Source: Patescibacteria group bacterium (GTDB lineage Bacteria; Patescibacteriota; Minisyncoccia; UBA6257; 2-01-FULL-56-20). Taken from it: 64,000 nt of DNA. Shown piece by piece: positions 5,521-50,413 of the stretch (within the stretch, counting starts at the first letter, position 1; each line of letters opens with the position of its first letter). Location of the stretch: contig JAGXBC010000001.1 of NCBI GenBank assembly GCA_018971305.1, positions 173,956 to 237,955 on the forward strand. The letters are read 5' to 3'. Made by a program: the position numbers and the translations under genes. The notes below the pieces were generated by a model. It had not been told where the DNA came from. It worked only from the letters and a program-made list of their open reading frames with translations, and made no database searches.

Positions 5521-5934
5521 TTAGTAAGTTTAATTTATTTTCGATTTAATTTATTTTATCGACCTGTTTTTGATTGGGTCGTCGACCTTTTTAATTTAAT
5601 TTGGAATCCACTGGCCTTCGTTTCGACCCCCATATCATCGGTGAGGACAATGTGCGGGGAACAAATAGCCGCGGAGTTGGTTTCTAATTATTAAAAAACT
5701 CGCTGTTCAAGGCGAGGCTGTCTAAGTTTAAAGATAAACCATACAACTATGACCAAAAAATATCATAGCCGCTAGCTTTTATCTTCGTGTCCGTTTTCAC
5801 GAACTGGTCCAGCCTCACACTGAACCTCTATTAAATTCTAGCAGAACCAAGAGCTAAAAGATGTGCATAAACCGACAGAATCAAGCTTTTGGTTAGCAAT
5901 ATATATAACGATGCTAAGGGCGAAAGGTTACCAA

Positions 5935-15024: not shown

Positions 15025-16309
15025 TCACTTTATCAACCCCGACAATTTTTTAAATTCGACACTTACAATCTTTGGCGTTTTGGCTTCAATATTCAGGCGT
15101 AAAAGAGGCTCGGTATTGGACTCTCGAATATTGAACCACCAATCTTGAAATTCCATCGTAAGACCGTCTAGGTGGGAAACCCTGTTTGTCCGACGCCGAT
15201 AAATATTTTCAATAGTTTTAACCGTACCTCTTTTATTTTTGACGACAAAGTTAGTTTCTTTAATACGATAATATGCCGGCAAAGAATCAAGCCAAGAAGA
15301 AAGTTTTTGCCCGGCCAGATTTAACTCACCCACGGCATTAGCAAAATGGACCATCGCCCTGATACCAGAATCAAAATAACTTTTATTCCGACCGAACTTA
15401 TTTTCAAAATAAATATGCCCGGAGAATTCCACTCCGAGTTTTATATTCTTGGCCTTCATTGTTCTCTTAATAAAATAGTGGCCGACGCGAGATTCAATAA
15501 ATTTAAGCGGAGATTTTTTAACCAGCCAACCCATACGCAGATCAATAAGATACGGAGAAGGAAAATCTCTCGCCAAGAGCAAGGCAACGGCCTCCTGCGG
15601 CACCAGGCGCCCGCGATCGTCCACGAAAAATACCCTGTCTCCGTCGGCATCGAAAATCGCACCGAAGTCCGCTTTTATTTTTTTGACGCGGCTTATTATG
15701 TCGGTCATGGCGCCGCCTGCCCAAGGGTCCGGCCCGTGCGCGGGGAATTTACCGTCCGGACTAGAGTTTATCAAATCTATAAATAATTTATTGCTCTTTA
15801 GCCGGCGCAAAACCGAACCGACCGTACCATTCGATGAGTCGCAAACACAACGCAAATTCGCTTCCAGCTTCAAAAATTTTTTCAGATAATCGGCGTAAAT
15901 CTTGGCGCATTCCATTCTATTGGCCGATAACTGATTTTTTAATATCCTCGCCGCTTATCGGCACCGCAGCTGCGCCGACTACCTTCAAACCGTTATATTC
16001 TCCGGGATTATGCGAAGCGGTTATCATTATTCCTCCCGAAGCCCTGAAATAATTGACGAAGAAATAAAGCATCGGCGTAGTAGAGACACCGATGGATATT
16101 ATTTTTATTCCCTTGAATTTTTTGAGACCGGCGATGGCGGCAGCGTAAAGCCGCGGCGAGCTCAAACGCGCGTCGCGCGCCACAACCACTTTTCCTTTTT
16201 TGAAAAATTTCTGTAGGCCACCGACTATCTTTTTAACGTTTTCTTCATTAATGGCATCCGGATATTTACCACGAATATCATAGGCCTTAAAAATTGATTG
16301 CGGAATCAT
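15025..16309 (-). pseudogene. phosphoglucomutase/phosphomannomutase interrupted by a frameshift in an A6 run
   Basis: The 16309..15917 ORF carries domain I (FKAYDIRG, active-site TASHNPGEYNG). The 15915..15025 ORF carries domains II-IV (DADGDRVFFVDDRG, ESNTEPLLRL). Deleting one A from the AAAAAA run at 15935-15940 restores one continuous frame (...DIKNQLSANRMECAK...). Confidence 0.7.
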
Positions 16310-20550: not shown

Positions 20551-21204
20551 TTATTCAAGATAATCTACAACGACAGGCTCTGGCCTTAATTCATTATTTC
20601 CCTTGGCGCCACCGAAAATCCTAAGAGTGCTAAATCCCCTCACAAGCGAATGACCAATCCACCTCCTGTCTACCGGAGAAAATTTGTTCTGATCATCGCC
20701 GTCTTCAAAAAGAAGGCTTAAACCTAAAAATTCAAGCCATTCTTCGTGCCGCATGGCATTCAATCCCAGGTAATGGTAAGACCTCCCCGACGCTATAATA
20801 TATCCGGGGAGAACCAGGTCGCTTTTCGATCTGCTCATAACCGTTCCGAATTCTTGTCGTAATATGCCAATAGCATCGTCTGAAATCGGAATGGAAAAAT
20901 CTAATTGAGGTAAATACATAGCTTCACCGTTCTTATGTCGGGCAACAGAGCATAAGCCGACAACGGTTGACACGCTTAACGCACAATTATCACGTAATAA
21001 AAGCAGCTCTTCCTTAACCGTATCTTTTTTAGAAACGTCTAGCAAAGAATACTTGCGCTCCGATTCGCTTTGCGTCATACCATTCGACTTATAAATAAAA
21101 CAAACTGTTCGTAGGTTGACTAACTCTTTATTCCTTTCGGCAATTTCCAAGACAACGTCGATAGAATGCGCCGTCCCGTTCAGAGGAAGCATATAGACCT
21201 CCAT
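20551..21204 (-). CDS. hypothetical protein
   Basis: 217-aa ORF with no firm family. It contains an ...IASGRSYHYLG... segment reminiscent of the AEP-primase SGxGxHxY motif (speculative). Confidence 0.45.
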   Translation of the reverse strand: MEVYMLPLNGTAHSIDVVLEIAERNKELVNLRTVCFIYKSNGMTQSESERKYSLLDVSKKDTVKEELLLLRDNCALSVSTVVGLCSVARHKNGEAMYLPQLDFSIPISDDAIGILRQEFGTVMSRSKSDLVLPGYIIASGRSYHYLGLNAMRHEEWLEFLGLSLLFEDGDDQNKFSPVDRRWIGHSLVRGFSTLRIFGGAKGNNELRPEPVVVDYLE

Positions 21205-21270
21205 GATTCAAGGATGTAAATTCGAGCTGTTTAGAATATAACCAATCTGAACCTATGGCGCAATAGTTTT

Positions 21271-22290
21271 CTACAACCTCGATATTGCTTCGTTAAATCC
21301 GCTCTCTGAAGCGCTCATAATTAGATAACCGTTATACCAGCCGTAAACGAAAGCGGCGCCCGGCGAAGAAAATGTCAGTTCGCGCGCTGGCTGACCGCTT
21401 AAAGTTATATCCTTGAATCCATTCGTGTCGGCATTGCCCGGGGAAGTTAAAAAGAATCCGGGAACTTGCGACGATTGTTCGATTTTTGCAACGTCGTCTT
21501 TCAGGAACAACCAATTCTCGGTCGGCTTCAGTTGCAGAATATATCCGGGCCAGGAACCATTTTTATCTTTGTAAACAAACATCGTCGCGTCCGTATTGAA
21601 ATGGGCGAAGAGATAAGCCGGATCCAAAAGCGCCACATCGGCATAATTTAAAAGCTGGATTGCTTCATAGTTATTGCCTTTCTCATCCTCGGCGTTCACT
21701 TCAAAGAAACCTCCGGTACTCGTTGACGGCAAAATTCCTAAAAGTTTTTGGCTGTACGTTTGCAAATCAAAAGAACTTTGGGCCGTGGAACGGATAACAA
21801 GCACAAGCGTTTTATCCGCAGATTTCTTAAAGAACGATTGATGAATAGTACTCCCTGCCGCAGTCACCGATTGATTTGCGCCAGTTTGTTGCTGTGCCGG
21901 CTGTCCTGCCTGATCCTGTTTCTGAATGGTAGCGGGGGCTCCGGTACTGCCACCAGGAGGAGGCAAGATATTATAGAACAAAAATGCTCCGGCACCGATA
22001 GCGCCAATGGCAATGAGTGTGATGAGGGGAATTAAAAAACTATTTTTTTTTATGCCTCCAGCCGGTCCGTTGGTTTCTTCCGTTTGCACCGGACGCACGG
22101 TTGCGACTTTCACGCTTTTGAATCTCGGGCCAGAACCTCCGCTTGCCACCATCGATTCAATATCCGATTGCATCGTACGAATCCTTACCTCGTGCGGCGG
22201 CTCGGGAATGCTCGGGCTTGAATCTTCGGTGTTTGGCGATTGCCCGACACTGCCAGCTGCCCAAAAATTTTCTTGATTGTTTTCTGCCAT
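21271..22290 (-). CDS. hypothetical membrane-anchored protein (disordered N-terminus, one TM, extracytoplasmic C-terminal domain)
   Basis: 339 aa. TM helix SFLIPLITLIAIGAIGAGAFLFY. Q/T/S-rich linker. No recognisable catalytic motif. Confidence 0.5.
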   Translation of the reverse strand: MAENNQENFWAAGSVGQSPNTEDSSPSIPEPPHEVRIRTMQSDIESMVASGGSGPRFKSVKVATVRPVQTEETNGPAGGIKKNSFLIPLITLIAIGAIGAGAFLFYNILPPPGGSTGAPATIQKQDQAGQPAQQQTGANQSVTAAGSTIHQSFFKKSADKTLVLVIRSTAQSSFDLQTYSQKLLGILPSTSTGGFFEVNAEDEKGNNYEAIQLLNYADVALLDPAYLFAHFNTDATMFVYKDKNGSWPGYILQLKPTENWLFLKDDVAKIEQSSQVPGFFLTSPGNADTNGFKDITLSGQPARELTFSSPGAAFVYGWYNGYLIMSASESGFNEAISRL

Positions 22291-22374: not shown

Positions 22375-23907
22375 ATGCAGAAACGTTCGGTAATGCTTAT
22401 AATTTTGGACGGTTGGGGAATTGGCAAAGAAGACGATACCAATCCGGTTAACATCGCGAAGCCGGAGACATTTTCCTGGCTACGAAAAAATTTTCCCTTA
22501 ACTAGCCTGCGGGCATCGGGTATTGCAGTAGGTCTCCCCTGGGGAGAAACAGGCAACAGCGAGGTCGGACATTTAACGCTCGGTGCCGGCAAGGTTATAT
22601 ATCAATACTACCCGAAAATCACTATGGCTATTCAAGACGGCAGCTTCTTTGAAAATCCGGTCTTAAAAGATGCCTTCGCCCATGCAAGAAAAAATAGCTC
22701 GGCAGTCAACTTCGCCGGGCTTTTGAGCCGCGGCAACGTCCATGCGGCGCTCGATCATCTGCTAGCTCTTATTGAAATGGGCGAGAAAGAAAACGTGCCG
22801 GTGAAACTTCATCTTTTCGCCGACGGCAAGGACACCCCTCCCAAGAGCGTGCTAAAATTCCTCAAAGAAATTCCCGCGGAAAAAATTGCCACGCTCACCG
22901 GCCGCTATTACGCGATGGACCGCAGCGGAAAATGGCAACTAACTGAACAGGCTTATAACAACCTTGTCGGTAAATCAGGAATAATCGTCGTGAGTCCCGA
23001 CGAAGAGTTGGAAAAGGTTTTCTCCCGCGATCTTTCGGAAGAATATCTACCGCCCTTAAGATTCGGCGCCGGAAGTGAGATAAAAGACGGCGAGTCGCTT
23101 GTCTTCTTCAACTACCGCGAAGACAGCATCCGTCAGACAGCCGAGGCCTTCATTTTAAAAGATTTCAACGAATTCCCGCGTGAAAATTTCCAAGACCTGT
23201 ATATCGCCACATTCACCCATTATGAAGACAAACTTACTGCTCCGGTTGTTTTTGACGGCGACAAAGTAATGGAACCTCTCGGCAAAGTCATAAGTGATGC
23301 CGGGAAAAATCAACTGCGTCTCGCCGAGAGCTATAAATATGCCCACGTAACATTTTTTTTCAACGGCTATAGAGAATCACCTTTCAAAAACGAGTATAGA
23401 ATTTTAATTCCTTCTCTCTCAACCGCCAAACCAGAAGAGCATCCCGAACTCCAAGCCCAGGCCATAACCGACCGCCTGCTGGAAACAATACAAAATCCGG
23501 CATTTGATTTTATTCTTGTCAATTATTCCAACCCGGATACGATGGGACACACTGCCAACTTTGAGGCCGGCGTGGAAGCCGTTCGCACCATAGATAAAGA
23601 ACTCGGCCGCCTTTTAAAATCGGCGATAAACCCGGACATGGCGATTATCATAACTTCCGATCACGGCAATATAGAAGAAATGCTTGATCCAACCACTGGT
23701 TTACCCGAAAGTCAGCACGATCCGAACCCGGTCCCCTTATATCTCATCGCTCCGGAATTCAAGGGGAAAAAATTCTTGAACTGGCAGAATATTGAGAACG
23801 AAACGATGGGCGGACTAGCGGATGTCGCCCCTACCATTTTGGAACTTTTAGGCATCAAACAGCCGCCCGAAATGACGGGTAGAAGCCTATTGGAGGGGTT
23901 AATATAA
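22375..23907 (+). CDS. gpmI: 2,3-bisphosphoglycerate-independent phosphoglycerate mutase
   Basis: 510 aa. The N-terminus MQKRSVMLIILDGWGIGKEDDTNPV... matches the iPGM signature. Ser phosphotransfer region and metal-binding C-terminal domain (TSDHGN). Confidence 0.95.
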   Translation: MQKRSVMLIILDGWGIGKEDDTNPVNIAKPETFSWLRKNFPLTSLRASGIAVGLPWGETGNSEVGHLTLGAGKVIYQYYPKITMAIQDGSFFENPVLKDAFAHARKNSSAVNFAGLLSRGNVHAALDHLLALIEMGEKENVPVKLHLFADGKDTPPKSVLKFLKEIPAEKIATLTGRYYAMDRSGKWQLTEQAYNNLVGKSGIIVVSPDEELEKVFSRDLSEEYLPPLRFGAGSEIKDGESLVFFNYREDSIRQTAEAFILKDFNEFPRENFQDLYIATFTHYEDKLTAPVVFDGDKVMEPLGKVISDAGKNQLRLAESYKYAHVTFFFNGYRESPFKNEYRILIPSLSTAKPEEHPELQAQAITDRLLETIQNPAFDFILVNYSNPDTMGHTANFEAGVEAVRTIDKELGRLLKSAINPDMAIIITSDHGNIEEMLDPTTGLPESQHDPNPVPLYLIAPEFKGKKFLNWQNIENETMGGLADVAPTILELLGIKQPPEMTGRSLLEGLI

Positions 23908-28556: not shown

Positions 28557-29549
28557 ATGAAACCAATTCTTGTTTCCGGCATCCAGACTTCAGGCCGATT
28601 GCACCTTGGCAATTATTTGGGCGCCTTAAAAAATTTTGTTGACCTGCAAAATTCGGGAAAGTACGATTGTTATTTTTTCTTAGCCGACTTACATTCATTA
28701 ACCGAGGCGTTCAATCCAGAAGATAAACATAAACAAGTCATTGAACTGGCCGCGGATTTTCTGGCTGCCGGCCTGGACCCCAAGAAATCCGTTATCTTCC
28801 AGCAATCGCAGGTCCCGGCGCATACGGAACTCGGATGGATTTTCAATACGATTACGCCATTCGGAGAATTAAACAGGATGACACAGTTTAAAGAGAAATC
28901 CGACGCGCAAAAAGAAAATGCGAATGTCGGGCTTTTAACTTATCCCACTCTGATGGCCGCCGACATTCTTTTATATGACGCCAAATTTGTGCCGGTTGGC
29001 GACGACCAAAAACAGCATTTGGAACTCACGAGAACTATCGCCCGTAAATTCAACGCCAAATTCGGCGAAACTTTCACGGAGCCACAACCACTATTTACAG
29101 CAGCCACTCGGGTGATGAACCTTGGCGAACCGGAGCGAAAAATGTCCAAGTCGCGCTCGCATCCACAAAACGTGATTTTCGTTGACGACTCGCCGGAAGA
29201 AATTTCCGCCAAAATAAAATCCGCCGTAACAGACTCCGGCTCGGAGGTTAAGTACGACATCAAAAACAAACCCGCAATAAGCAACTTGCTTACTATCTAT
29301 TCCGCCCTAAGCGGAGAAGCCATCCCTAAACTGGAGAAATATTTCACAGGGAAAAAGTATTCAGAGTTCAAAGTTAAGCTTGCAGAGCTGATATCCGATT
29401 ACTTCGCGGATTACCGCAAGAAGAAAAAGTTATTACTCGCCAAACCGCAGACACTTATAACAACGCTCAAATCCGGTTCAGCCAAAGCGGCAAAAGTTGC
29501 CGACAAAAAGATACACGAAGTTAAAAAAATAATAGGATTGGCGATTTAA
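28557..29549 (+). CDS. trpS: tryptophanyl-tRNA synthetase
   Basis: HIGH-region equivalent SGIQTSGRLHLGNYLG. KMSKS motif (RKMSKSRSH). 330 aa, class I TrpRS. Confidence 0.95.
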   Translation: MKPILVSGIQTSGRLHLGNYLGALKNFVDLQNSGKYDCYFFLADLHSLTEAFNPEDKHKQVIELAADFLAAGLDPKKSVIFQQSQVPAHTELGWIFNTITPFGELNRMTQFKEKSDAQKENANVGLLTYPTLMAADILLYDAKFVPVGDDQKQHLELTRTIARKFNAKFGETFTEPQPLFTAATRVMNLGEPERKMSKSRSHPQNVIFVDDSPEEISAKIKSAVTDSGSEVKYDIKNKPAISNLLTIYSALSGEAIPKLEKYFTGKKYSEFKVKLAELISDYFADYRKKKKLLLAKPQTLITTLKSGSAKAAKVADKKIHEVKKIIGLAI

Positions 29550-32500
29550 ATCTTCCTTACAGCCAACCAGGAATCCGCGCCGTTAACCTTCGTTTCCGCC
29601 TCCGCTTCAAATTTTTCCGATTTTTTATATTCTATCGCTTCGGCTCCGACCTCAACTTTCAAAACTTTTTCGTACTTGTAGATTGCGAGACGCACTTCCG
29701 CCGGCAACTGGGCCATCAATATCATTTTATCCTTCGGCTTAAGCCCGGATTTTTGCCGCAGCTCCTGAACGGCCCTTATTATCTCCCGCAATATACCCTC
29801 TTCGCGCAGTTCCGGCGTGACAACGGTATCCAGTTCAATTTCTTCCTTAAATCTGGCACTGAAAACAACTTTCTTAATATTCACCTCTTCTGCTAAAATA
29901 CCAAGCAATTCTTTGGGAATCTTCAGCTTTCCGGTTTTAACCCTGAGTTCACCGAGAGGCTGACGGACTTTTATTCCCGCCTCCGCCCGCTTGGCCAATC
30001 CCAAACTAGCCAAACGCCTCACTTCGGCCATTCCTTCCAGTAATTTAGAATTTTGAGTTTTTAATTTTGGTTTTGTCTCCGGCCAATCTTCCAAATGAAC
30101 TGATTCCTGCGTTCCGTTAAGTTCTCCGTAAAGTAATTCCGAAAAGAATGGTGCGAAGGGAGCTGTTAGTTTCGCCGTTTCACGCAGAACCAAGCCGAGT
30201 GTGGCGCAAGCCGAATCAAAATCCTTGGCGCTCTCCGGTTTTTGCAAGCGCCGGCGCGAACGGCGGATATACCAGCGCGACAGATCGTCAACCAACTTCT
30301 CTATAACAAGCGCGGCTTCTCTTATTTCGTATTTATCCAGGTGCTTTGTGGTATCGGCAACAGTTTCTCCGAGCCGAGACAGAATCCATTTGTCCAGAAC
30401 ATTGGTCGAGGATGGAATTTTATCTCCCGAACTTTTCTCGCTCGCATATGTTTTATAAAATACCAAACTGTTCCAAAGAAGCATGTGCATCCTGCGGTAT
30501 GTTTTCGAAATCTCGTTCTCGTCAAAATTTTTTGTCTCGCCCGGAGGATTCACGGTATAGAAATACCAGCGGACGGCATCAACTCCGTATTTATTGATAA
30601 CCTCCCAGGGGTCAACTATATTCCCTTTGGACTTGGACATTTTCTGCCCGTGCTTATCGTTTATCAGCCCCAAAGAAACAACGTTCTTATATGGCGCCGG
30701 GTATCCCAAAGATGTAGCAACTGCAAGCAGGGTGTAAAACCATCCTCGCGTCTGATCCATTGCCTCCGAAATATAATCTGCCGGATAAGCGCGGCTTTTG
30801 TCTATAGCATCCTCATTCTCAAAAGGATAATGCTGCTGAGCGAAAGGCATTGAGCCGGAATCAAACCAGACGTCAGCTACTTCTTTGACCCGTCCTGTTC
30901 TCGCGCCGCATTGCGGGCAGGCAATATGGATACCATCGGCATATGGCTTGTGCAGGTCTATAACTCCAGTACCATCACGGGGCACTATCTTTAGAGTTAA
31001 CTCTCTTGTTTCAGCTACGCCGATAAAATCCTGGCCACGGCTTATTTTTTCCCGTATAGCGCGTTTTTCATCCCATGCTTCCGCCGCGTGCGTAAGCATC
31101 CAGATCGGATACTCATGGCTCACGAGCAGGATATTCTTGCCGCGGTATTTTTTTTCCAATTCCTGCAAAATTTCCCAAACCCGACTGCGCAAATCGCGCA
31201 GGGACTCGCCTCCTTCCGGCTTGCCCTCAAACTTTGATTCGTATGTGGGAAAAAGCTTATGGTAGCGGCTATCACGGCCCCCCTGAAGCATTGAACCCAA
31301 ATCTACCTCGCGCAGACGTTTGTCGAAAACTACTTTTTTGACGCCCAATGCCTCCGCCGCAATCTCGGCTGTTTCTTTTGTCCGGATTATGTCCGAAGAA
31401 ACGATGACGTCTATTTTTTTTCTGCTGCTTTTTAGTTTCTGCAAAAAATTTTTCGCCGACTTTTCCGCGAGCGAGCGGCCGATAACGGTCAAAGTGTTGT
31501 CTTTAGACCAACCGGAATCAATAAAGTGTTCGGCGTTGCTTTTCGCCTCTCCGTGCCGCATAACCCAATAATTATTCCTGGAACCTCCGGCAAGCTTACT
31601 GAGCTCGTCAATGCCTCCCGCCACTTCGCAGTGATTGCATTTTTTGCATTCCCAGATCGGTAACGGCGTTCCCCAGAACCGTTCACGGGAAAAATTCCAA
31701 TCTTTAACCTCACGCAGCCATTCGCCGAAACGCCCCTGTTTTACGTATTCCGGCGTCCAATTGATTTTATTGTTATTGGCTATAAGCTGCTTCCTTAAAC
31801 CGCTCATGGCTACGAACCAGGAATTTCTTGCGTAATATAGAATTGGCGTGCCGCACCGCCAGCAGTAGGGATAATCATGCTTGTAGGGAAGAACTTTCAG
31901 GAGCGAACCGCGCTGTTTTAAATGTTCAACGATGCCAGCCTCGGTTTCCTTGGACTTCGCGAACAGGCCGGAGAAACCAGAAACGTCCTTAGTGAACTTC
32001 CCAACTTCATCAACCGTGTGATACCTCGGTAAGCCGACTTTAAGTCCCAGCTGATAGTCATCTTCGCCGTACATAACCGCAGTGTGGACTACCCCGGTTC
32101 CCTCTGTCGTATTAACAAAATCGGCGTCGTAAACCTTGTACGAACTTGGCGAACGCAATGCCGGAATTTCAAAAAGCGGCTCGTAGCTCAGGCCGATAAG
32201 TTCGTTCCCCTCAAAAATCTCCCTCAGGTCGGGGGCGGAACCAAAAATAGCGGGATTATTCTTAACGGCTTCCTCAGCTACAATCCAACGCTCTATTTTC
32301 CCGTCAATCATCTTCTTCAGTACGGCGTATTTGATGTTTTTACCAACGGCCAAAGCCACATTTCCTGGGAGCGTCCACGGCGTAGTCGTCCAGGATAAAA
32401 CATACGTATCATCTCCCGCCGAGAAATATCCGCCGATTTTCTGCCCCCTCTTCAATTTGAATTTTATATAAACGGAGTCATCAGTAGTTTCTTTGTAACC

Positions 32501-33076
32501 CAAAGCAAGCTCGTGCGAAGAAAGCGACGTGCCGCAGCGCACGCACCAGGGAACTACCTTATGTCCCTTATAAAGAAGTTTTTTTGTCCAAAAGCGCTTT
32601 ATTATCCACCAAAGAGTTTCTATGTAGGAGCTTTCGTAAGTTATGTAAGGGTCTTTCAGGTCCAGCCAAAAGCCCATCCGTTTTGTGAGGCGCTCCCATT
32701 CGTCTTTGTATTCCCAGACGGACTCGCGGCATTTTTTATTGAAGGCCTCAACGCCGTAGTTTTCAATGTCCTTTTTCGTTTTCAGGCCCAATTGTTTTTC
32801 CACCCCTATCTCCACGGGCAATCCGTGCGTGTCCCAGCCGCCTTTTCTCGGAACCAAATAGCCCCGCATCGCCTTGTAGCGTGGGATTATGTCTTTGAAG
32901 GCACGAGCCAGAATATGGTGCACGCCCGGCCTGCCGTTAGCAGTTGGCGGACCCTCGTAAAATATGAACTTTTTAGCGCCTTTCCGCTTAGCGAGAGTTT
33001 TTGCAAAAATGTCGCTTTCGTTCCAAAATTTCAAAACTTTTTCCTCCTCCTTGGGAAGATTGAATTCTTCGGGCAT
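29546..33076 (-). CDS. ileS: isoleucyl-tRNA synthetase with an inserted histidine-phosphatase (PGAM-like) domain
   Basis: HIGH motif PPTANGRPGVHHILARAF. CP1 editing domain. KMSKS (HGQKMSKSKGNIVDP). The anticodon-binding C-terminus is intact. Between the zinc-knuckle Cys pairs WECKKCNHC (aa about 476-483) and IACPQCGARTGR (aa about 719-728) lies a 230-aa insert instead of the usual 30-40 aa. Confidence 0.95.
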   Translation of the reverse strand: MPEEFNLPKEEEKVLKFWNESDIFAKTLAKRKGAKKFIFYEGPPTANGRPGVHHILARAFKDIIPRYKAMRGYLVPRKGGWDTHGLPVEIGVEKQLGLKTKKDIENYGVEAFNKKCRESVWEYKDEWERLTKRMGFWLDLKDPYITYESSYIETLWWIIKRFWTKKLLYKGHKVVPWCVRCGTSLSSHELALGYKETTDDSVYIKFKLKRGQKIGGYFSAGDDTYVLSWTTTPWTLPGNVALAVGKNIKYAVLKKMIDGKIERWIVAEEAVKNNPAIFGSAPDLREIFEGNELIGLSYEPLFEIPALRSPSSYKVYDADFVNTTEGTGVVHTAVMYGEDDYQLGLKVGLPRYHTVDEVGKFTKDVSGFSGLFAKSKETEAGIVEHLKQRGSLLKVLPYKHDYPYCWRCGTPILYYARNSWFVAMSGLRKQLIANNNKINWTPEYVKQGRFGEWLREVKDWNFSRERFWGTPLPIWECKKCNHCEVAGGIDELSKLAGGSRNNYWVMRHGEAKSNAEHFIDSGWSKDNTLTVIGRSLAEKSAKNFLQKLKSSRKKIDVIVSSDIIRTKETAEIAAEALGVKKVVFDKRLREVDLGSMLQGGRDSRYHKLFPTYESKFEGKPEGGESLRDLRSRVWEILQELEKKYRGKNILLVSHEYPIWMLTHAAEAWDEKRAIREKISRGQDFIGVAETRELTLKIVPRDGTGVIDLHKPYADGIHIACPQCGARTGRVKEVADVWFDSGSMPFAQQHYPFENEDAIDKSRAYPADYISEAMDQTRGWFYTLLAVATSLGYPAPYKNVVSLGLINDKHGQKMSKSKGNIVDPWEVINKYGVDAVRWYFYTVNPPGETKNFDENEISKTYRRMHMLLWNSLVFYKTYASEKSSGDKIPSSTNVLDKWILSRLGETVADTTKHLDKYEIREAALVIEKLVDDLSRWYIRRSRRRLQKPESAKDFDSACATLGLVLRETAKLTAPFAPFFSELLYGELNGTQESVHLEDWPETKPKLKTQNSKLLEGMAEVRRLASLGLAKRAEAGIKVRQPLGELRVKTGKLKIPKELLGILAEEVNIKKVVFSARFKEEIELDTVVTPELREEGILREIIRAVQELRQKSGLKPKDKMILMAQLPAEVRLAIYKYEKVLKVEVGAEAIEYKKSEKFEAEAETKVNGADSWLAVRKI

Positions 33077-33103: not shown

Positions 33104-34072
33104 CTATTCAAAAAATCTGCTGCGTATTTTATGGGTATTGCCATGGCTCAAAAGTCCAAGATAAGCGTTAATCGTCGCTGGCGCTGGGTTGGCTATTACC
33201 ATCTTTAACATTCTTCTTCTCGTCGTTGTCCGAAAAACACGGTGATCAGGAAAATTTATCCACCCCAAAAAATCAACTCCGGACGCAATGGTATTTATGA
33301 AAATTTTATTTGGATGAAGCGTAAGTCGCAATTTATTTTCCAAAAATTCTTTTATTTTTGGAACTAGAGATTCCAGCAATCCGCGGTTCTCCGAGAAAAT
33401 AACGAAGTCGTCCGCATAACGTATATAGTGCCTTGTTTTCAGTTTGTGCTTCACAAACTGGTCAAACTCGTTCATATAAACATTTACAAAGAGTTGTGAA
33501 GTGAGGTTGCCGAGCGGTAAACCTTGTCCAGGCGCGCTTGATGAAAAACTCTCGATAACTCTTTCCAGGAGCCGCAGCGTATCAGCGTCTGGGATATATG
33601 AACGTAGAATATCAAGGAGGACGGCGTGGTCGATGTTGGCAAAAAACTTTTGAATGTCACACCTGAGAACCCAGGAGGTACGCGTATTGTTCTTACTAAT
33701 AATGCGGGCGAACGCGCGAAAACGATTCATTGCGGCATGCGTTCCTTTTCCGACTCGGCATGAGAACGAATCAGCTATGAAAGTTTTATCGAAGAACGGA
33801 TAGAGCACCCGGTAGATGGCGTGATGGAGTAAGCGGTCGCGGACGGTTGCCTTGTGGATATTCCGCGGTTTCGGGTCGCAGATGTTGAATGCTTGATACC
33901 CACCGTGTCGGTACGCACCGTTCAAAATATCCGCGCGAAGTGATAGAATGTTATCCATAAGGCGCGATTGGAACTCCTGCACATCACGTTTCCCGCTCTT
34001 GCCGCGCAAAAATTCCCTCCAGGCCTCAAGCAGGTTTTCCACGCTTATGATTTCCTCAAATTTATGAACCAT
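33104..34072 (-). CDS. diversity-generating retroelement reverse transcriptase
   Basis: The start is Met of MVHKFEEIISVENLLEAWREFLRGKSGKRDVQEF (domain 0). RT motifs ...IHKATVRDRLLHHAIY..., GLPLGNLTSQLFVNVYMNEFD (DGR-type motif 4) and IRYADDFVIFSE (YADD). No maturase/X domain. About 322 aa. Confidence 0.85.
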   Translation of the reverse strand: MVHKFEEIISVENLLEAWREFLRGKSGKRDVQEFQSRLMDNILSLRADILNGAYRHGGYQAFNICDPKPRNIHKATVRDRLLHHAIYRVLYPFFDKTFIADSFSCRVGKGTHAAMNRFRAFARIISKNNTRTSWVLRCDIQKFFANIDHAVLLDILRSYIPDADTLRLLERVIESFSSSAPGQGLPLGNLTSQLFVNVYMNEFDQFVKHKLKTRHYIRYADDFVIFSENRGLLESLVPKIKEFLENKLRLTLHPNKIFINTIASGVDFLGWINFPDHRVFRTTTRRRMLKMVIANPAPATINAYLGLLSHGNTHKIRSRFFE

Positions 34073-34105
34073 CTTAATTTTCACAATAAAAATTTTCAAG
34101 TAACT

Positions 34106-34116
34106 CCCCCCCCCCC
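34106..34116. repeat. C11/G11 homopolymer tract between the divergent RT and Avd-like genes
   Basis: 11 consecutive C on the plus strand. It sits 30 nt after the RT start codon (on the opposite strand) and just after the in-frame stop (TAA 34101) that precedes the Avd-like frame. Confidence 0.9.
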
Positions 34117-34121
34117 GACAC

Positions 34122-34460
34122 ATCACGCTTCCTATCATCCAACACCTGGTAGCGGCGTACAAAACCTGGCATGAATTTCTGCCGCATGTACCCAAGGATG
34201 CGAGATACTCGTTAGGAACTAAGGTCGACGCTTCGTTTATAGAAACGATTGAAGCGGTATTCACCGCAAGCTATCTCAGTAGAGAGAGTAAACTTCCTTA
34301 TCTCGAAAAAGCTGCCGCGAAACTGGACATGGTTAAATTCTTTCTCCAGATAATCTGGGAAGTCAAGGCGCTCGACAATAAAAAATATATTACACTCTCG
34401 GAAAAGCTGGATGAAATAGGCAGAATGCTCGGCGGATGGCTTAGGAAAATGTCTACTTAA
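34122..34460 (+). CDS. Avd-like four-helix-bundle accessory protein of the DGR (no canonical start codon in frame)
   Basis: The plus-frame translation is ITLPIIQHLVAAYKTWHEFLPHVPKDARYSLGTKVDASFIETIEAVFTAS...KLDMVKFFLQIIWEVKALDNKKYITLSEKLDEIGRMLGGWLRKMST*. It follows the Avd/TIGR02436 pattern (VW.K...L...IY..T..FPK.E.Y.L.SQ.RRAA.S...NIAEG; E..F..IA.GS..E...QL..A; EI.KML..LI..L). The first in-frame codon after stop 34101 is CTC. ATC at 34122 or ATG at 34064 (+1 frame, across the C11 tract) are the only start candidates. Confidence 0.6.
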   Translation: MTLPIIQHLVAAYKTWHEFLPHVPKDARYSLGTKVDASFIETIEAVFTASYLSRESKLPYLEKAAAKLDMVKFFLQIIWEVKALDNKKYITLSEKLDEIGRMLGGWLRKMST

Positions 34461-34497
34461 ACCATTCCGCCGGACATCGCCCGTTGTTTTCATTTGC

Positions 34498-34624
34498 TGC
34501 CAATTACTCGCGACGCGACCGTTGCGATTGAAGTCGTTGTCAAGCCAGTTCCAGTTCAGGTACCAGCGCTCGCCGTTCTGATTGAGGTAGGGAACGTTCC
34601 GGTTGCCGTTCGCGTTCAGCACGA
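34498..34624 (-). repeat. DGR template repeat (TR)
   Basis: 127-nt repeat matching 34958-35084 (offset 460). On the minus strand it reads ...VLNANGNRNVPYLNQNGERWYLNWNWLDNDFNRNGRVASN with 8 AAC codons. Confidence 0.85.
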
Positions 34625-34886
34625 ATGTGCGCAAGGCCGTCCGGGCCACCATCCTTCGAGTCACAAACAAAAACCATACTCTCGGGATTGTATCGTATTC
34701 GGAATTTTGAATTCCTTAGCCTCGCACACCAAGTAGCAACAATTATGAAGCGATTAACGAATGCACGCTAGGAGAAAACCCGTCCTCCCCCATTCCGGCA
34801 GACGCCATCGCGGAATTCGATGCGCACAACCTTAGCCGTGCGCATAATATCTACTATCCATAAGGATTATATCAAAAAAATTTAAT

Positions 34887-34908
34887 GGGCCCTAACGAAT
34901 TAGGGCCC
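34887..34908 (-). other. GC-rich hairpin with UUCG loop downstream of VR (DGR-associated hairpin / target-gene terminator)
   Basis: Minus strand GGGCCCTAA-TTCG-TTAGGGCCC, a perfect 9-bp stem, 52 nt after the target stop. It is followed by ATTAAATTTTTTTGATATAATCC. Confidence 0.7.
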
Positions 34909-34959
34909 AAGGGTTGAGGGTTCAAGCGACACAAAGGATCTGAGTCACAAGAACCAATG

Positions 34960-35580
34960 CTACTTGCTCGCGACGCGACCGTTGCGATTGAAGCCGCAGT
35001 CAAGCCAGCTCCGGCCCAGGTACCAGCGCTCGCCGTTCCGACTGAGGTAGGGAACGTTCCGGTAGCCGTTCGCGTACAGCACGACCAAACCCGGAAAATC
35101 GATGTAAACTTTTCCGAGAAGGGACATGAATACGGGGAATTCATCCTGGTGCTCAACAAGCCAAACGGCCTGCTGGTAACCCAGGACAAGATTCCGGCGG
35201 GACACGAGCCTGCGCTCGTATTCGCTGCCAACGATAGACTTCTCGTCAGAACGCAACAATGTGCCAAGACGGAGAATAACTTCATCGGTTGGCGAAGAGT
35301 CGGACTCGATTTTTTCGATCTGAGAGAACGCCCTGCGGAGTTCCTCGAGTGTCGGCTGCTTCAGGGCTGGAATCCGAACGGCGACATCTTCCATCGTCTT
35401 CCAGAATTCCAACATCTTGATCTCGGCGTTGCCGAGATAGATGTCACGGACGCCTGAAAGGTTGGTGCCGGTTGAAAGCCATTTTACAAAATCGGGCGTG
35501 CAACCATTCCGCTCAAGCGCATGATCGAATTCTGCGGCTTGGCGAGCAAACATGACGGGTTGAGACTTGTCATTAGGCAT
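34960..35580 (-). CDS. DGR target protein with C-terminal variable region (VR 34963-35084), probable minimal C-type-lectin/FGE-like fold
   Basis: 206 aa. The C-terminus VLYANGYRNVPYLSRNGERWYLGRSWLDCGFNRNGRVASK aligns to the TR. The residues that differ from the TR are mostly where the TR has AAC (Asn) codons. AAGGAGG RBS 7 nt upstream of ATG 35580. No signal peptide. Confidence 0.8.
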   Translation of the reverse strand: MPNDKSQPVMFARQAAEFDHALERNGCTPDFVKWLSTGTNLSGVRDIYLGNAEIKMLEFWKTMEDVAVRIPALKQPTLEELRRAFSQIEKIESDSSPTDEVILRLGTLLRSDEKSIVGSEYERRLVSRRNLVLGYQQAVWLVEHQDEFPVFMSLLGKVYIDFPGLVVLYANGYRNVPYLSRNGERWYLGRSWLDCGFNRNGRVASK

Positions 35581-38311: not shown

Positions 38312-38839
38312 ATGATTATCGTCTTTACGGGTAACGGCAAGGGAAAAACCACGGCATCTCTCGGCCAAATGGTTCGGGTTTTGGGGCGTGGTAAAAAAGC
38401 GCTGATGATCCAATTTATCAAAGGCCCTTGGCGTTCTGGCGAGGATGAGTTCGCCGCCAAATTCCAGATTCCAGATTCAATATTCCATATAGAAAAAATG
38501 GGGCTCGGCTTCGTTGGAATCCTAGGGGATAAACTTCCGCGCGAAGAACACGAAAAAGCAGCTGAGAAAGCAATCGCACATTTCGAAGAGGAATCGCGCT
38601 CCGGCAAGTGGCATTTGATTATATTAGATGAAATTAATGTGGCGGTGTCTCTCGGGCTCTTGAGCGCCGCGCGTGTAGTTGAAGCCGTAAAAAATTATCC
38701 CGAAAACAGAATCTTAATGCTGACCGGCCGCAACGCTCCGCAGGAATTCCTCGACCTTGCGGACCTTGCCACGGAAATGCGGGAAATAAAACACCCCTTC
38801 CAAAGCGGCGAACGGGCGAAGTTTACGGTGGAATTTTAA
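38312..38839 (+). CDS. cob(I)yrinic acid a,c-diamide adenosyltransferase (CobO/BtuR-type corrinoid adenosyltransferase)
   Basis: The modified P-loop MIIVFTGNGKGKTTASLGQ is typical of the CobA/CobO family. 175 aa. Confidence 0.75.
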   Translation: MIIVFTGNGKGKTTASLGQMVRVLGRGKKALMIQFIKGPWRSGEDEFAAKFQIPDSIFHIEKMGLGFVGILGDKLPREEHEKAAEKAIAHFEEESRSGKWHLIILDEINVAVSLGLLSAARVVEAVKNYPENRILMLTGRNAPQEFLDLADLATEMREIKHPFQSGERAKFTVEF

Positions 38840-47860: not shown

Positions 47861-50413
47861 TCATGCCTTTGTTTCGCCGATCTCATTAAATTGTATTTCT
47901 TCTCCGACAGAAGAAACCTTTATATGGCTGCCGCGATTTACTGTTTTTTTCAATATCTTCTGCGCGAGCGGGGCACGAAGCTTTTCATCTATCACTCGGC
48001 GCAGAGGCCTCGCACCGAATGCAGGATCATAACCAAGCTTAACAAGCTCACTAATCAGAGAGTCGTCGAATTCCATCTTTATACCCTGCTCGGCTACCAT
48101 GGCCGCGACATCCTGCAGATTAATTGAGACTATCTTAGCCAGATCTACCGGAAGAAGATTTTTAAAAATAACGATGCGCGAGAATCTATTGATAAGTTCC
48201 GGCTTAAAAACATCGGTTAATCTTTTCTTTAGATATTCCGATATTTCCGACATGGACTGTCCTTTATTCAGAGCATCGTTGATGATATCCGAATGGGCGT
48301 TGGACGTGGCGATAATAACCGTATTTTGAAAATCAACCACTCTTCCCAAGTTGTCGGTCAGGCGGCCATCATCCAAAACCTGCAGAAAAAGGTTGAGTAT
48401 GTCCGGAAATGCTTTTTCAAACTCATCCAAAAGCACCAAGCTGTATGGTTTCTGTAAAATCGCATCTGTGAGCGTACCGTTCACGCTGCCATCCGGTGAA
48501 CCGATAAATCTGTAGAAACTTTGCTTGTCTTGGTATTCCGTCATATCAAAACGCACCATCGCTTTTTCCGAGCCGAACTGAACGCGCGCCAGAATCTTAG
48601 CGAGCTCGGTTTTGCCGACGCCGGTAGGGCCAACAAAGAGAAAACTGGAAATCGGGCCGCCGGCGCGAGAAAGGCCGCTTCTATATTCTCGTAAAGATTC
48701 GGATACGGCGCGCACGGCTTCTTCCTGATCGATTAGACGTTCGTGAATAATATTCTCCAGGTTCAAAAGTTGTTTAGCTTCGTCACCGGACGCCTCGTGG
48801 ATAGGAATATTCACCTTAGCCTCTGCCACCCTGATAACCTGCTCCGGGCCAAGAACTTTTTCTCCCCTTCTTTTTACGTCTACTACAGCGCTTTTCAATA
48901 GTTCCTCGGCGCTTGCCGGTAAAAATTTATTGCGAAAATATTTTTTAGCGAGAATCACGGATTTCTTTACGGCGCCGAAACTAATGGTAACGCCAAACTG
49001 CTTCTCCAACAGCAACCCATCGTAACTCAAGATTTTTTCGGCTTCGTCTTCCTTTATTTCATTAACTCTGATAATTTCAAATGCGCCGGCGAAATCGCTT
49101 CTCGGCTCAATGAACTGCTTAAACTCTTTGGGATATGTAGCACCAATTATAGGAAAAGAATTATTCATAATTATCGGCATCAGCTCATCGGCGGCGGAAA
49201 GGTATGCCGTACCCGAGGTCCGCACTAAATTATGAATGTCCGCGATATAGATTATAATATTGCCGGCAGTTATGATCTCCTCAATAATTTTCTTCAGCCG
49301 CTGATTCAACTCTTCCGGCGGCGCTCCCGCAACCAAGCTACCAAGCTCCAATCCCACAAGCCTCTTGTCGAAAAGTGCCTGTGGCACTTCGTCTTTGGAT
49401 AATTTATAAGCCAAGTGGGCAACCAATGTTTCCTTGCCTATACCGGATTCACCTATCAGCAAGGCATTAGGGTTTATCGGCCGAGCCAATGTATCTATTA
49501 ATCGTTCCAATTCTTCTTTATGACCGATAAGAAACCCCGCGCGTCCCTGCCTGGCTAAATCGGTGAAATCGGTGGAATATCTATCTAGAGTAGGAGTCGG
49601 TCTTGAAGTCCAATCCCTGTTCATGATTCTGTGCCTTGACCGAACCGGTCCCGACACAAAACCGGCTACGCTGCCGGGCAAACGTCCGAACGAAGAACTC
49701 TTACTTAAGGAGCTGAAAATCAATGCTCTTTCCAGGTCCCCGGCATCAATCCCGAAGATTCCGAATATCCTCTTCAAAGATTCGTTTTCTATTAGGGGGA
49801 GGGAAGAAAATAGGTCGCTTAATTCTATGAATGCGTGTCCCGACTCCAACGCCCGATTCAGAGCGCTAACCGTTAAAAGTTCCACGTTCCCGAGGAGAGA
49901 TTCTTGTGTCGGACCCACTCCTTCGCCCCTGCCGCTGGCGGATAAAAATTCTTCGATTTTCTGCCTGAATTCATCAAAGGGAATATCAAGGCGCCTCAAG
50001 CCGCTTTCTATTTCAGAAAAATTAAGAAGCTGGCGCGCCAGTTCCAAAAAGAAATCGTGCCGAGTGATTAGGCTACTATCGAAAGATTTTTCTATTATCC
50101 CGAATGCCTTCGGCCTAAGAAATAAGGCCAGATTAACCCTTCCCTTTCTGGGGAATTCTGTAAGCGGCTTATCCGCCTGCCTCAGGTGCATTACTCTGTC
50201 TAGTAAGAATAAAATCAGAAATATACCGAAGAAACGCATCCAGGTTAAATCAGACAAAATAAATGTCGCGGTTGCGGCGGCAAGAACCAGGTATCCAATG
50301 TAGCTCAAAATCCTCACCAAAAATCTGCCTGGCCAGCTCATCCGCAGGCGCGGGTCGTTGAAGGAAAGTTTTAATTCCTGAGCTCTTTTTGTTTTAGAAA
50401 TTTCTTGCTGCAT
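47861..50413 (-). CDS. membrane-anchored ClpB/ClpC-like double-AAA+ protein with degenerate D1 ATPase domain
   Basis: N-terminal TM helices (FLVRILSYIGYLVLAAATATFIL; FFGIFLILFLL). D1 Walker A LLIGESGIGKETLV has K-E in place of K-T. D1 Walker B IIIYIADIH has A-D in place of D-E. D2 is intact: [38 protein letters not shown]. Confidence 0.75.
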   Translation of the reverse strand: MQQEISKTKRAQELKLSFNDPRLRMSWPGRFLVRILSYIGYLVLAAATATFILSDLTWMRFFGIFLILFLLDRVMHLRQADKPLTEFPRKGRVNLALFLRPKAFGIIEKSFDSSLITRHDFFLELARQLLNFSEIESGLRRLDIPFDEFRQKIEEFLSASGRGEGVGPTQESLLGNVELLTVSALNRALESGHAFIELSDLFSSLPLIENESLKRIFGIFGIDAGDLERALIFSSLSKSSSFGRLPGSVAGFVSGPVRSRHRIMNRDWTSRPTPTLDRYSTDFTDLARQGRAGFLIGHKEELERLIDTLARPINPNALLIGESGIGKETLVAHLAYKLSKDEVPQALFDKRLVGLELGSLVAGAPPEELNQRLKKIIEEIITAGNIIIYIADIHNLVRTSGTAYLSAADELMPIIMNNSFPIIGATYPKEFKQFIEPRSDFAGAFEIIRVNEIKEDEAEKILSYDGLLLEKQFGVTISFGAVKKSVILAKKYFRNKFLPASAEELLKSAVVDVKRRGEKVLGPEQVIRVAEAKVNIPIHEASGDEAKQLLNLENIIHERLIDQEEAVRAVSESLREYRSGLSRAGGPISSFLFVGPTGVGKTELAKILARVQFGSEKAMVRFDMTEYQDKQSFYRFIGSPDGSVNGTLTDAILQKPYSLVLLDEFEKAFPDILNLFLQVLDDGRLTDNLGRVVDFQNTVIIATSNAHSDIINDALNKGQSMSEISEYLKKRLTDVFKPELINRFSRIVIFKNLLPVDLAKIVSINLQDVAAMVAEQGIKMEFDDSLISELVKLGYDPAFGARPLRRVIDEKLRAPLAQKILKKTVNRGSHIKVSSVGEEIQFNEIGETKA

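Follow-up and report, generated by a model that had tools for sequence, protein, structure and literature searches.

A Phosphatase Domain Nested in Isoleucyl-tRNA Synthetase

We analyzed ileS, the gene for isoleucyl-tRNA synthetase (IleRS), in a 64,000-nucleotide (nt) stretch of DNA from a Patescibacteria group bacterium (assembly GCA_018971305.1, contig JAGXBC010000001.1, positions 173,956 to 237,955). This whole stretch is termed the window, and coordinates are counted from its first letter. The gene, an open reading frame (ORF) on the minus strand, encodes 1176 amino acids (aa), the length that the initial annotation had given. A histidine-phosphatase domain is nested between the two halves of a zinc (Zn)-knuckle hairpin in this protein. 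All motifs that the initial annotation quoted lie where it had placed them, with the coordinates confirmed by translation. The parts of the gene are as follows, with residue conservation given for 176 full-length fused enzymes.

29546..33076 (including the stop codon), minus strand: ileS, encoding the 1176-aa type-2 IleRS with nested phosphatase (ORF list, TIGR00392, Foldseek)
31586..33076, minus strand: IleRS residues 1 to 497, with the N-terminal Rossmann half, the CP1 editing domain, and the first half of the Zn-knuckle hairpin (Pfam tRNA-synt_1, residues 14 to 494; tblastn)
32915..32926, minus strand: class I signature in the swapped form G-V-H-H, residues 51 to 54 (translation)
31637..31648, minus strand: first CxxC of the Zn knuckle, CKKC (C477, C480; translation)
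30974..31585, minus strand: inserted segment, residues 498 to 701 (204 aa; histidine-phosphatase branch 1 with short linkers), delimited by insert-free IleRS and Protein Data Bank entry 8c8u
31052..31567, minus strand: Pfam His_Phos_1 (PF00300) match, residues 504 to 675 (E 4.4e-29)
31550..31558, minus strand: RHG motif R507-H508-G509 with the predicted phospho-accepting His (R and H kept in 175/176)
31382..31384, minus strand: R565, second phosphate-binding Arg, RT motif (kept in 174/176)
31205..31207, minus strand: E624, predicted proton donor, GGES motif (kept in 174/176)
31115..31117, minus strand: H654, second active-site His, SHE motif (kept in 175/176)
30908..30919, minus strand: second CxxC of the Zn knuckle, CPQC (C720, C723; translation)
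30629..30643, minus strand: KMSKS, residues 812 to 816 (coordinates verified by translation)
29549..30973, minus strand: IleRS residues 702 to 1176, with the second Rossmann half, KMSKS, the stem-contact fold, the anticodon-binding domain, and the type-2 C-terminal domain DUF5915 (Pfam)

The whole protein scored 855.5 bits against TIGR00392, the NCBIfam equivalog for IleRS (cut-off 621.4), and its closest resemblance is to the type-2 enzymes (IleRS2). Pfam resolved it into tRNA-synt_1 in two pieces, His_Phos_1 (residues 504 to 675), Anticodon_1 (895 to 1041), and DUF5915 (1048 to 1175). AlphaFold modeled the full-length protein with a predicted local distance difference test score (pLDDT) of 85 and a predicted template modeling score (pTM) of 0.78, with both junctions at a pLDDT of at least 88. 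The top Foldseek matches of this model, which extend over its whole length, were Priestia megaterium IleRS2 (8c8v; E 3e-82), the yeast IleRS–tRNA structure (8wnd), and Thermus thermophilus IleRS (1ile). Pfam, AlphaFold, and Foldseek together reveal the CP1 editing, anticodon-binding, and type-2 C-terminal domains of an IleRS. The HIGH, CP1, KMSKS, and anticodon-binding regions had been described as intact. All of these domains are present, but the motif at the HIGH position reads GVHH and not H-x-G-H. GVHH corresponds to the natural IleRS2 variant [A/G]XHH, a form found in 148 of the fused enzymes, the other 28 having HxGH. The single ileS of the 64-kb window is the fused gene, and the fused form is the sole IleRS type among the 120 nearest relatives. 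Since all IleRS domains are kept and the full-length model is confident, junctions included, the protein can be regarded, as initially proposed, as a nested fusion and not a pseudogene. As judged from sequence and model, the gene product is an intact type-2 IleRS with predicted charging activity.

The boundaries of the insert were defined by comparison with enzymes lacking it. In tblastn searches, residues 5 to 497 and 702 to 1157 adjoin without a gap at the loci of insert-free relatives. The same flanks correspond to residues 478 and 486 of P. megaterium IleRS2 (8c8u/8c8v/8c9d), which has a loop of ∼7 residues there. The 204-aa segment takes the place of this loop at the tip of a hairpin whose strands bear the CxxC pairs 477–480 and 720–723. 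The initial annotation had placed the insert at 30934–31624, with about 230 aa in place of the usual 30 to 40. That figure fits the spacing of the Cys pairs (240 residues from C480 to C720), but the insert itself is 204 aa long (30974..31585). The view that two Cys pairs flank the insert held, both CxxC halves belonging to one Zn-knuckle hairpin. In the full-length model the insert has pLDDT values of 88 to 97, and in a domain-only model a value of 94.2. The G+C content does not change across either junction. According to the model, the phosphatase domain is rigidly nested, with firm junctions rather than a loose tether. In the parts of the yeast IleRS–tRNA paper covered here, the subdomains are only named and no tRNA contact is given for the Zn-knuckle hairpin (probably "CP3").

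Family and Active Site of the Nested Domain

A profile search bore out the histidine-phosphatase domain that had been proposed from motifs. The PF00300 match within IleRS (E 4.4e-29) scored 102 bits, and scores of 102 to 106 bits were obtained overall against a gathering threshold of 21.7. The branch-1 catalytic core (RHG His, two Arg, Glu, second His) is complete and the domain has the α/β/α fold of the superfamily. The RHG Arg and His are also invariant in alignments that take in stand-alone relatives. The best structural neighbor of the domain is PspA, and the figures for the others are 21.6 for mycobacterial glucosyl-3-phosphoglycerate phosphatase (GpgP), 21.2 for PhoE, 20.7 for a histidine phosphatase of the riboflavin pathway, and 19.8 for CobC. 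From its sequence and model, the domain is apparently a complete, compact PhoE/PspA/GpgP/CobC-like branch-1 histidine phosphatase that is predicted to be catalytically competent.

Assignment to a curated phosphatase family was attempted and failed in each case. Among the cofactor-dependent phosphoglycerate mutases (dPGMs), the scores were 65.5 for dPGM_arch (cut-off 225), 61.2 for GpmB (261), 40.3 for PRK01295 (316), and 19.6 for pgm_1 (81.7). The PspA-type phosphoserine phosphatase model NF045917 gave 53 against 350. The CobC α-ribazole phosphatase models TIGR03162 and PRK15004 gave 55.6 against 162.9 and 36 against 250, respectively, and the SixA phosphohistidine phosphatase model TIGR00249 gave 30.5 against 74.5. 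The window also encodes a separate, cofactor-independent phosphoglycerate mutase (iPGM):

22375..23907, plus strand: cofactor-independent phosphoglycerate mutase (Metalloenzyme and iPGM_N; Pfam)

Because of this enzyme the nested domain is not needed for glycolysis, and since the dPGM cut-offs were missed as well, the description "PGAM-like" in the initial annotation applies to the fold only.

Occurrence of the Fused Architecture across Patescibacteria

The same 1176-aa protein, identical throughout, is found in the NCBI metagenome-assembled genome (MAG; "Patescibacteria group bacterium") and in an independent Logan assembly of run SRR32006850. All 120 of the best full-length relatives (56 to 66% identity, 1155 to 1271 aa) contain PF00300, including one from a Parcubacteria MAG deposited in 2015. 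A phmmer search of 1.84 billion cluster representatives, with a query spanning both junctions, returned 239 proteins (50%-identity clusters) at E ≤1e-30, and nearly all of the best 150 matches run unbroken through the two junctions, with identities as low as ∼33%. Among GTDB species representatives, a scan revealed at least 150 genomes with the fused architecture. Locus counts rest on 80 fetched loci of the 150 genomes found, and in 76 of these 80 the N-half, phosphatase, and C-half share one reading frame, while three of the other four end at contig edges. The hosts are labeled Paceibacterota, Parcubacteria, Liptonbacteria, Yanofskybacteria, Jorgensenbacteria, and Minisyncoccia. The fusion is present in closed chromosomes of ∼0.89 Mb (OY970175.1, OY970382.1, and OY970358.1), and a divergent fused member (KKP39778.1) comes from a Peregrinibacteria MAG. 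The comparison with related genomes that the initial annotation had proposed shows, in these sequences, a fusion that is widespread, extending to hundreds of ultra-small Patescibacteria of the candidate phyla radiation (CPR), and not a singleton. At one locus (L046, 5411..7933), the ileS N-half and phosphatase stand apart from the C-half though the contig continues, an arrangement that could reflect a frameshift, an assembly error, or a true split.

The five catalytic residues R507, H508, R565, E624, and H654 are kept in 174 to 175 of the 176 fused enzymes, and K812 and K815 of KMSKS in 174 to 176. By this measure of sequence conservation, purifying selection on the phosphatase catalytic residues is as strong as on KMSKS. 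The Zn-knuckle cysteines are also retained (C477 in 93%, C480 in 90%, C720/C723 in 91 to 92% of these homologs). Mean pairwise identity is 0.51 for the insert and 0.49 to 0.71 for the IleRS domains. The pairwise identities of insert and core are correlated (Pearson r 0.82; reached by 0 of 300 permutations in a Mantel test), indicating that insert and host diverged together and that the domain has not been mobile recently. As far as sequence comparison can tell, this is a real and old architecture that has passed by vertical descent through much of Patescibacteria.

These data leave next to no room for an artifact or a product of decay, whether a pseudogene, a chimera made in assembly, an inserted intein or other mobile element, or a structural module that has lost catalysis. 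The chimera that the initial annotation had named as a possible refutation is ruled out by the identical protein in an independent assembly and by the 76 in-frame loci of different species, closed chromosomes included. The G+C content is also uniform across the junctions. An intein or mobile insertion was rejected since the Pfam scan detected no Hint, intein, or homing-endonuclease family, in agreement with the earlier remark that intein motifs are lacking, and since the insert co-diverged with its host. Against a dead module, the catalytic residues are 99% conserved.

Additional Insertion Sites and the Split Form

Query segments were mapped onto all long homologs, which revealed variants of the architecture. 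The Zn-knuckle loop (site 1) is the majority form. In one enzyme (P0305), the Zn hairpin is intact and the phosphatase lies at site 3, between the KMSKS/stem-contact region and the anticodon-binding domain (query residues ∼880 to 893). A family of six members (P0306; contigs up to 1.06 Mb) carries copies both at site 2, a loop from query residue ∼747 to ∼765, and at site 3. Copies occupy sites 1 and 3 in P0215 and sites 1 and 2 in P0288, and four proteins (P0299, P0434, P0435, and P0300) have a tandem pair within site 1. The R-H..R..E..H set is kept in every extra-site, double, and tandem copy. Copies within one protein are 19 to 30% identical to each other, which indicates that they are not recent duplications.

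The closest free-standing homologs of the insert are proteins of ∼195 aa with 36 to 44% identity from Staskawiczbacteria, Nealsonbacteria, and Paceibacterota MAGs. Their genes, here called hpp, sit between argS and an insert-free ileS of ∼945 codons' worth of protein (∼945 aa), with gaps of a few nt. The gene order is AA_kinase, argS, hpp, ileS, a gene of no assigned family, and recO, and it was found in five independent lineages. These proteins (for example, P0007, GCA_001820475.1) have the same catalytic residues as the insert, and their genes are directly upstream of that of an IleRS 40 to 45% identical to the window IleRS outside the insert. In this form the phosphatase is a separate polypeptide and its IleRS has a short loop and HYGH, whereas the window IleRS is the nested form with GVHH. 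The insert-free enzymes form a large, coherent, Staskawiczbacteria-like clade in which none of the 120 best matches (67 to 91% identity) contains PF00300 and 117 of 119 have the canonical HYGH. The labels given to the operonic phosphatases go no further than "histidine phosphatase family protein" or hypothetical.

A metagenome scan with the subfamily alignment recovered 225 relatives, and all 80 loci kept are stand-alone ORFs. At 54 of 71 informative loci, ileS starts directly 3′ of hpp on the same strand, with an overlap or gap of −4 to +2 nt, the commonest spacings being a 4-nt overlap and a 2-nt gap. In 41 of 63 loci, argS ends just 5′ of hpp. More distant stand-alone homologs (P0019, P0023, P0025, and P0032) lie in unrelated genomic contexts without ileS linkage. 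Thus, the linkage is specific to this phosphatase subfamily. At two loci of distant relatives (3949..5621 in both L091 and L092), a small CTP_transf_like (nucleotidyltransferase) gene has a His_Phos_1 gene on either side, and the three lie 3′ of an RsmB/F-type methyltransferase gene. This is possibly another conserved context, related to nucleotides or cofactors.

Origin of the Split Form

Neighbor joining on only the phosphatase domain gave a star-like tree without a resolved separation of nested from operonic forms. Therefore, the longer IleRS core was used, with outgroups. This tree was calculated without the insert from 59 fused enzymes, 20 insert-free enzymes, and two outgroups, MupA and a clostridial IleRS2 (890 columns, 100 bootstraps), and a midpoint-rooted version was also built. 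MupA falls as an outgroup, and the first branch in the outgroup-rooted tree is the enzyme with a phosphatase at site 3 only. The insert-free clade was monophyletic in 100 of 100 replicates, was sister to all fused enzymes in 0 of 100, and always lay at least seven nodes deep. This topology suggests that the nested state is ancient and that the Staskawiczbacteria-like operon arose later by fission, or un-nesting, though the distance method, the use of two Firmicute outgroups, and possible long-branch effects weaken the case for fission. One possible route to un-nesting is that ileS was duplicated in tandem and the two copies then degenerated in complementary parts, which would leave hpp directly upstream of ileS, as found.

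Possible Roles of the Phosphatase

On balance we lean toward a phosphatase that is active as a phosphomonoesterase and whose function is tied to IleRS. Its target in cis would be a small phosphorylated molecule or a compound resembling a nucleotide, connected with the aminoacylation/editing cycle, or possibly, under the same view, an RNA end, and the domain would not be a mere passenger. By analogy, the structural neighbors point to a small phosphorylated metabolite or nucleotide-like compound as the probable substrate. A tie to IleRS is supported by the recurrence of the family at three IleRS sites, by the two divergent, apparently active copies in some enzymes, and by the persistence of the association through deep divergence. 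Moreover, where the domain has left the protein, hpp is still translationally coupled to ileS in the order argS–hpp–ileS, and among the closest relatives the subfamily is fused to no other partner. The isoelectric point (pI) is 9.2 for the nested phosphatases and 9.8 for the operonic ones (net +7.6 per 100 aa), whereas the unlinked relatives are acidic (6.0), and the basic character of the IleRS-linked proteins may fit a polyanionic partner such as tRNA.

Several points weigh against such a tie. The nearest structural neighbors are ordinary metabolite phosphatases without a known link to translation, and since every curated NCBIfam phosphatase equivalog was missed, no specificity can be transferred from them. 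Three insertion sites argue against one precise substrate-channeling geometry. If hpp arose by fission, its adjacency to ileS is partly a historical by-product, and the extra copies possibly stem from intragenic duplication, so that neither is fully independent evidence of coupling. Finally, the pI contrast may merely mirror the proteomes of the hosts.

The tie to IleRS might also be extended to make the phosphatase a third catalytic center of the aminoacylation machine, acting on the tRNA acceptor end (2′/3′-phosphate or toxin-added pyrophosphate) or on a nucleotide that IleRS makes or binds. We hold this to be unlikely. If true, tRNA repair, detoxification, or nucleotide signaling would be physically part of tRNA charging in Patescibacteria, and IleRS, perhaps along with ArgRS, would be the target in trans of the stand-alone form.

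The domain could instead be a PspA/PhoE/GpgP-like housekeeping phosphatase that settled in a tolerant surface loop of a protein whose gene is essential and constitutively expressed, within a streamlined genome. In such a constructive-neutral fusion the domain would be active and its chemistry separate from aminoacylation, the linkage only securing expression and then being inherited. The genomes of Patescibacteria are reduced and fusions can become fixed neutrally there, the structures that match the domain best are those of phosphatases acting on small molecules in central or cofactor metabolism, and the insertion falls at a ∼7-residue loop on a peripheral hairpin tip. The domain is also tolerated at several sites, and fission leaves genes adjacent by default. 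We nevertheless consider a passenger a somewhat doubtful explanation, one that would have to account for an association that three architectures (nested, double, and operonic) share and that has lasted over roughly 33 to 100% sequence divergence. It also sits poorly with an ileS start that, after fission, still overlaps or abuts the phosphatase stop at most loci, with the finding that no subfamily member among the closest homologs found is fused elsewhere, and with junctions that are modeled as rigid, not loosely tethered.

Two narrower proposals assign the domain a macromolecular substrate. As an RNA-end phosphatase, it would strip a 2′/3′-phosphate or pyrophosphate, left by damage or a toxin, from the tRNA acceptor end and so enable charging on the same enzyme. 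The host binds tRNA, the operon partner argS encodes another class Ia synthetase, the IleRS-linked phosphatases are markedly basic, unlike their unlinked relatives, and the two divergent, active-looking copies of some enzymes are what a two-step removal would need. However, we know of no histidine-phosphatase-fold enzyme that acts on RNA ends, it is not apparent why tRNA-Ile alone should need such removal, and proteins of these organisms are commonly basic, with a pI of 9.0 for the IleRS core in the fused enzymes. We rate this proposal as improbable. Less probable still, and in our view very much so, is a protein phosphatase that, like SixA, PGAM5, or Sts, would dephosphorylate IleRS or a partner, for instance undoing inhibitory phosphorylation by a toxin or a Ser/Thr kinase. 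Some kinase toxins do phosphorylate other aminoacyl-tRNA synthetases, but the SixA model TIGR00249 was missed (30.5 against 74.5) and no conserved kinase is present among the neighborhood genes of the loci examined.

Relation to Known Enzymes

The window enzyme shares its domain order, Zn-knuckle hairpin, KMSKS, and DUF5915 with the type-2 (eukaryote-like, mupirocin-resistant) IleRS class (P. megaterium 8c8u/8c8v/8c9d, T. thermophilus 1ile, and MupA), in which the [A/G]XHH signature variant also occurs. P. megaterium IleRS2 aligns to the window model with a TM score of 0.76 (target-normalized), and its flanks align residue for residue. The known type-2 enzymes differ in having ∼7 residues where the window enzyme has the 204-aa phosphatase domain. 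Assignment to the mupirocin-resistance enzymes MupA and MupB was rejected (scores of 768 and 766 against a cut-off of 1900).

The relatives of the domain itself, PspA (4ij5), mycobacterial glucosyl-3-phosphoglycerate phosphatase (6s2q), PhoE (1h2e), and CobC (6e4b), are free-standing and 18 to 26% identical to it, whereas the window domain is nested. Histidine phosphatases have been found fused in PFK-2/FBPase-2 (1bif, 5hr5), in a mycobacterial RNase H/acid phosphatase (PRK07238), in the Nudix protein MutT1 (9cxx, 3fjy), and in TFIIIC τ55 (2yn0). To our knowledge, these fusions are all end-to-end, none is nested, and none involves an aminoacyl-tRNA synthetase. The window protein missed the cut-off of 326 for PRK07238 (RNase H/CobC-like). 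That IleRS can host an extra enzymatic domain is evident from NF040702, an IleRS with an N-acetyltransferase domain that curators name as an exception. The accessory fold there is GNAT and not a phosphatase, and the window protein scored 333 against a cut-off of 1999. No paper describing the NF040702 architecture was found in the literature searched.

In the same literature, whose coverage largely excludes subscription journals, we found no aminoacyl-tRNA synthetase that is described as containing a phosphatase. Neither a phosphatase nor CPR/Patescibacteria come up in a survey, dated February 2026, of how IleRS domains evolved, and a Parcubacteria genome paper does not describe the fusion. The initial annotation was aware of no precedent, which holds for the literature searched, but the architecture has been public in hundreds of MAG proteins since 2015, with automatic Pfam labels only. 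Nested or fused accessory domains are already known as a kind, and what is newly described here is a phosphatase inside IleRS. NCBI names the fused proteins (P0043 to P0162) "class I tRNA ligase family protein" and the insert-free relatives (P0311 to P0430) "isoleucine--tRNA ligase". The insertion seems to defeat the NCBI naming rule despite a TIGR00392 score above the cut-off, and with such names annotation pipelines under-call IleRS in these lineages.

Few enzymes have been studied as thoroughly as aminoacyl-tRNA synthetases, and each type of accessory domain found in them, be it for editing, tRNA binding, or signaling, has opened a field. Here, across a major bacterial radiation that is poorly understood, IleRS has an apparently active phosphatase built into it, a design that hints at a link between tRNA charging and phosphate chemistry. 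The variants form a natural series, from nesting at three sites through doubling to un-nesting into an operon partner, and matched fused and split pairs make the question of function testable. An activity tied to charging would mean new chemistry in translation, tRNA repair, or defense in organisms not yet culturable, and a passenger would make a clean example of how a domain enters an essential enzyme and is later split from it.

Genes around ileS

The neighbors of ileS in the window are as follows.

28557..29549, plus strand: trpS, convergent with and downstream of ileS (Pfam tRNA-synt_1b)
33104..35580, minus strand: diversity-generating retroelement between argS and ileS (reverse transcriptase, template and variable repeats)
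33104..34264, minus strand: reverse transcriptase of the retroelement (RVT_1; Pfam)
34498..34624: template repeat of the retroelement
34958..35084: variable repeat, at the 3′ end of the target ORF
34960..35580: target ORF of the retroelement, 206 aa
35775..37502, minus strand: argS, arginyl-tRNA synthetase (Pfam tRNA-synt_1d, DALR_1, and Arg_tRNA_synt_N)

The gene frame matches that of the relatives, with argS, the fused ileS::hpp, and convergent trpS, and in the window an inserted retroelement cassette separates argS from ileS. Among related loci, 47 of 63 have argS upstream of the fused ileS in the same orientation, and 51 of 64 have a convergent trpS downstream. The 3′ ends of ileS and trpS share 4 nt (29546..29549), where TTAA contains both stop codons. 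The retroelement repeats are 127 nt long and differ at 14 positions, 10 of them template adenines, which make up 10 of the 11 mismatches within the first 118 nt. Asn (AAC) codons follow one another in the template repeat, and the variable repeat is diversified at those codons.

Several other genes of the window were noted. About 800 nt past argS, at 38312..38839 on the plus strand, lies a gene for a BtuR/CobO ATP:corrinoid adenosyltransferase. CobC-type phosphatases share the fold of the insert, and no link has been established. A phosphoglucomutase/phosphomannomutase ORF (15025..15915, minus strand) comprises domains II to IV only, domain I with the catalytic Ser being outside the ORF, and may be split, frameshifted, or mis-started. 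The window encodes two ClpB-like AAA+ proteins, both on the minus strand. That at 8495..11143 is a canonical ClpB (Clp_N, two AAA modules, and D2-small), and that at 47861..50413 has 850 aa and an N-terminal half that matches poorly. Just downstream of recA, at 20551..22290 on the minus strand, the gene for an AEP-like primase protein (217 aa) adjoins a 339-aa ORF without a Pfam match, and the pair may be a small mobile or replication module.

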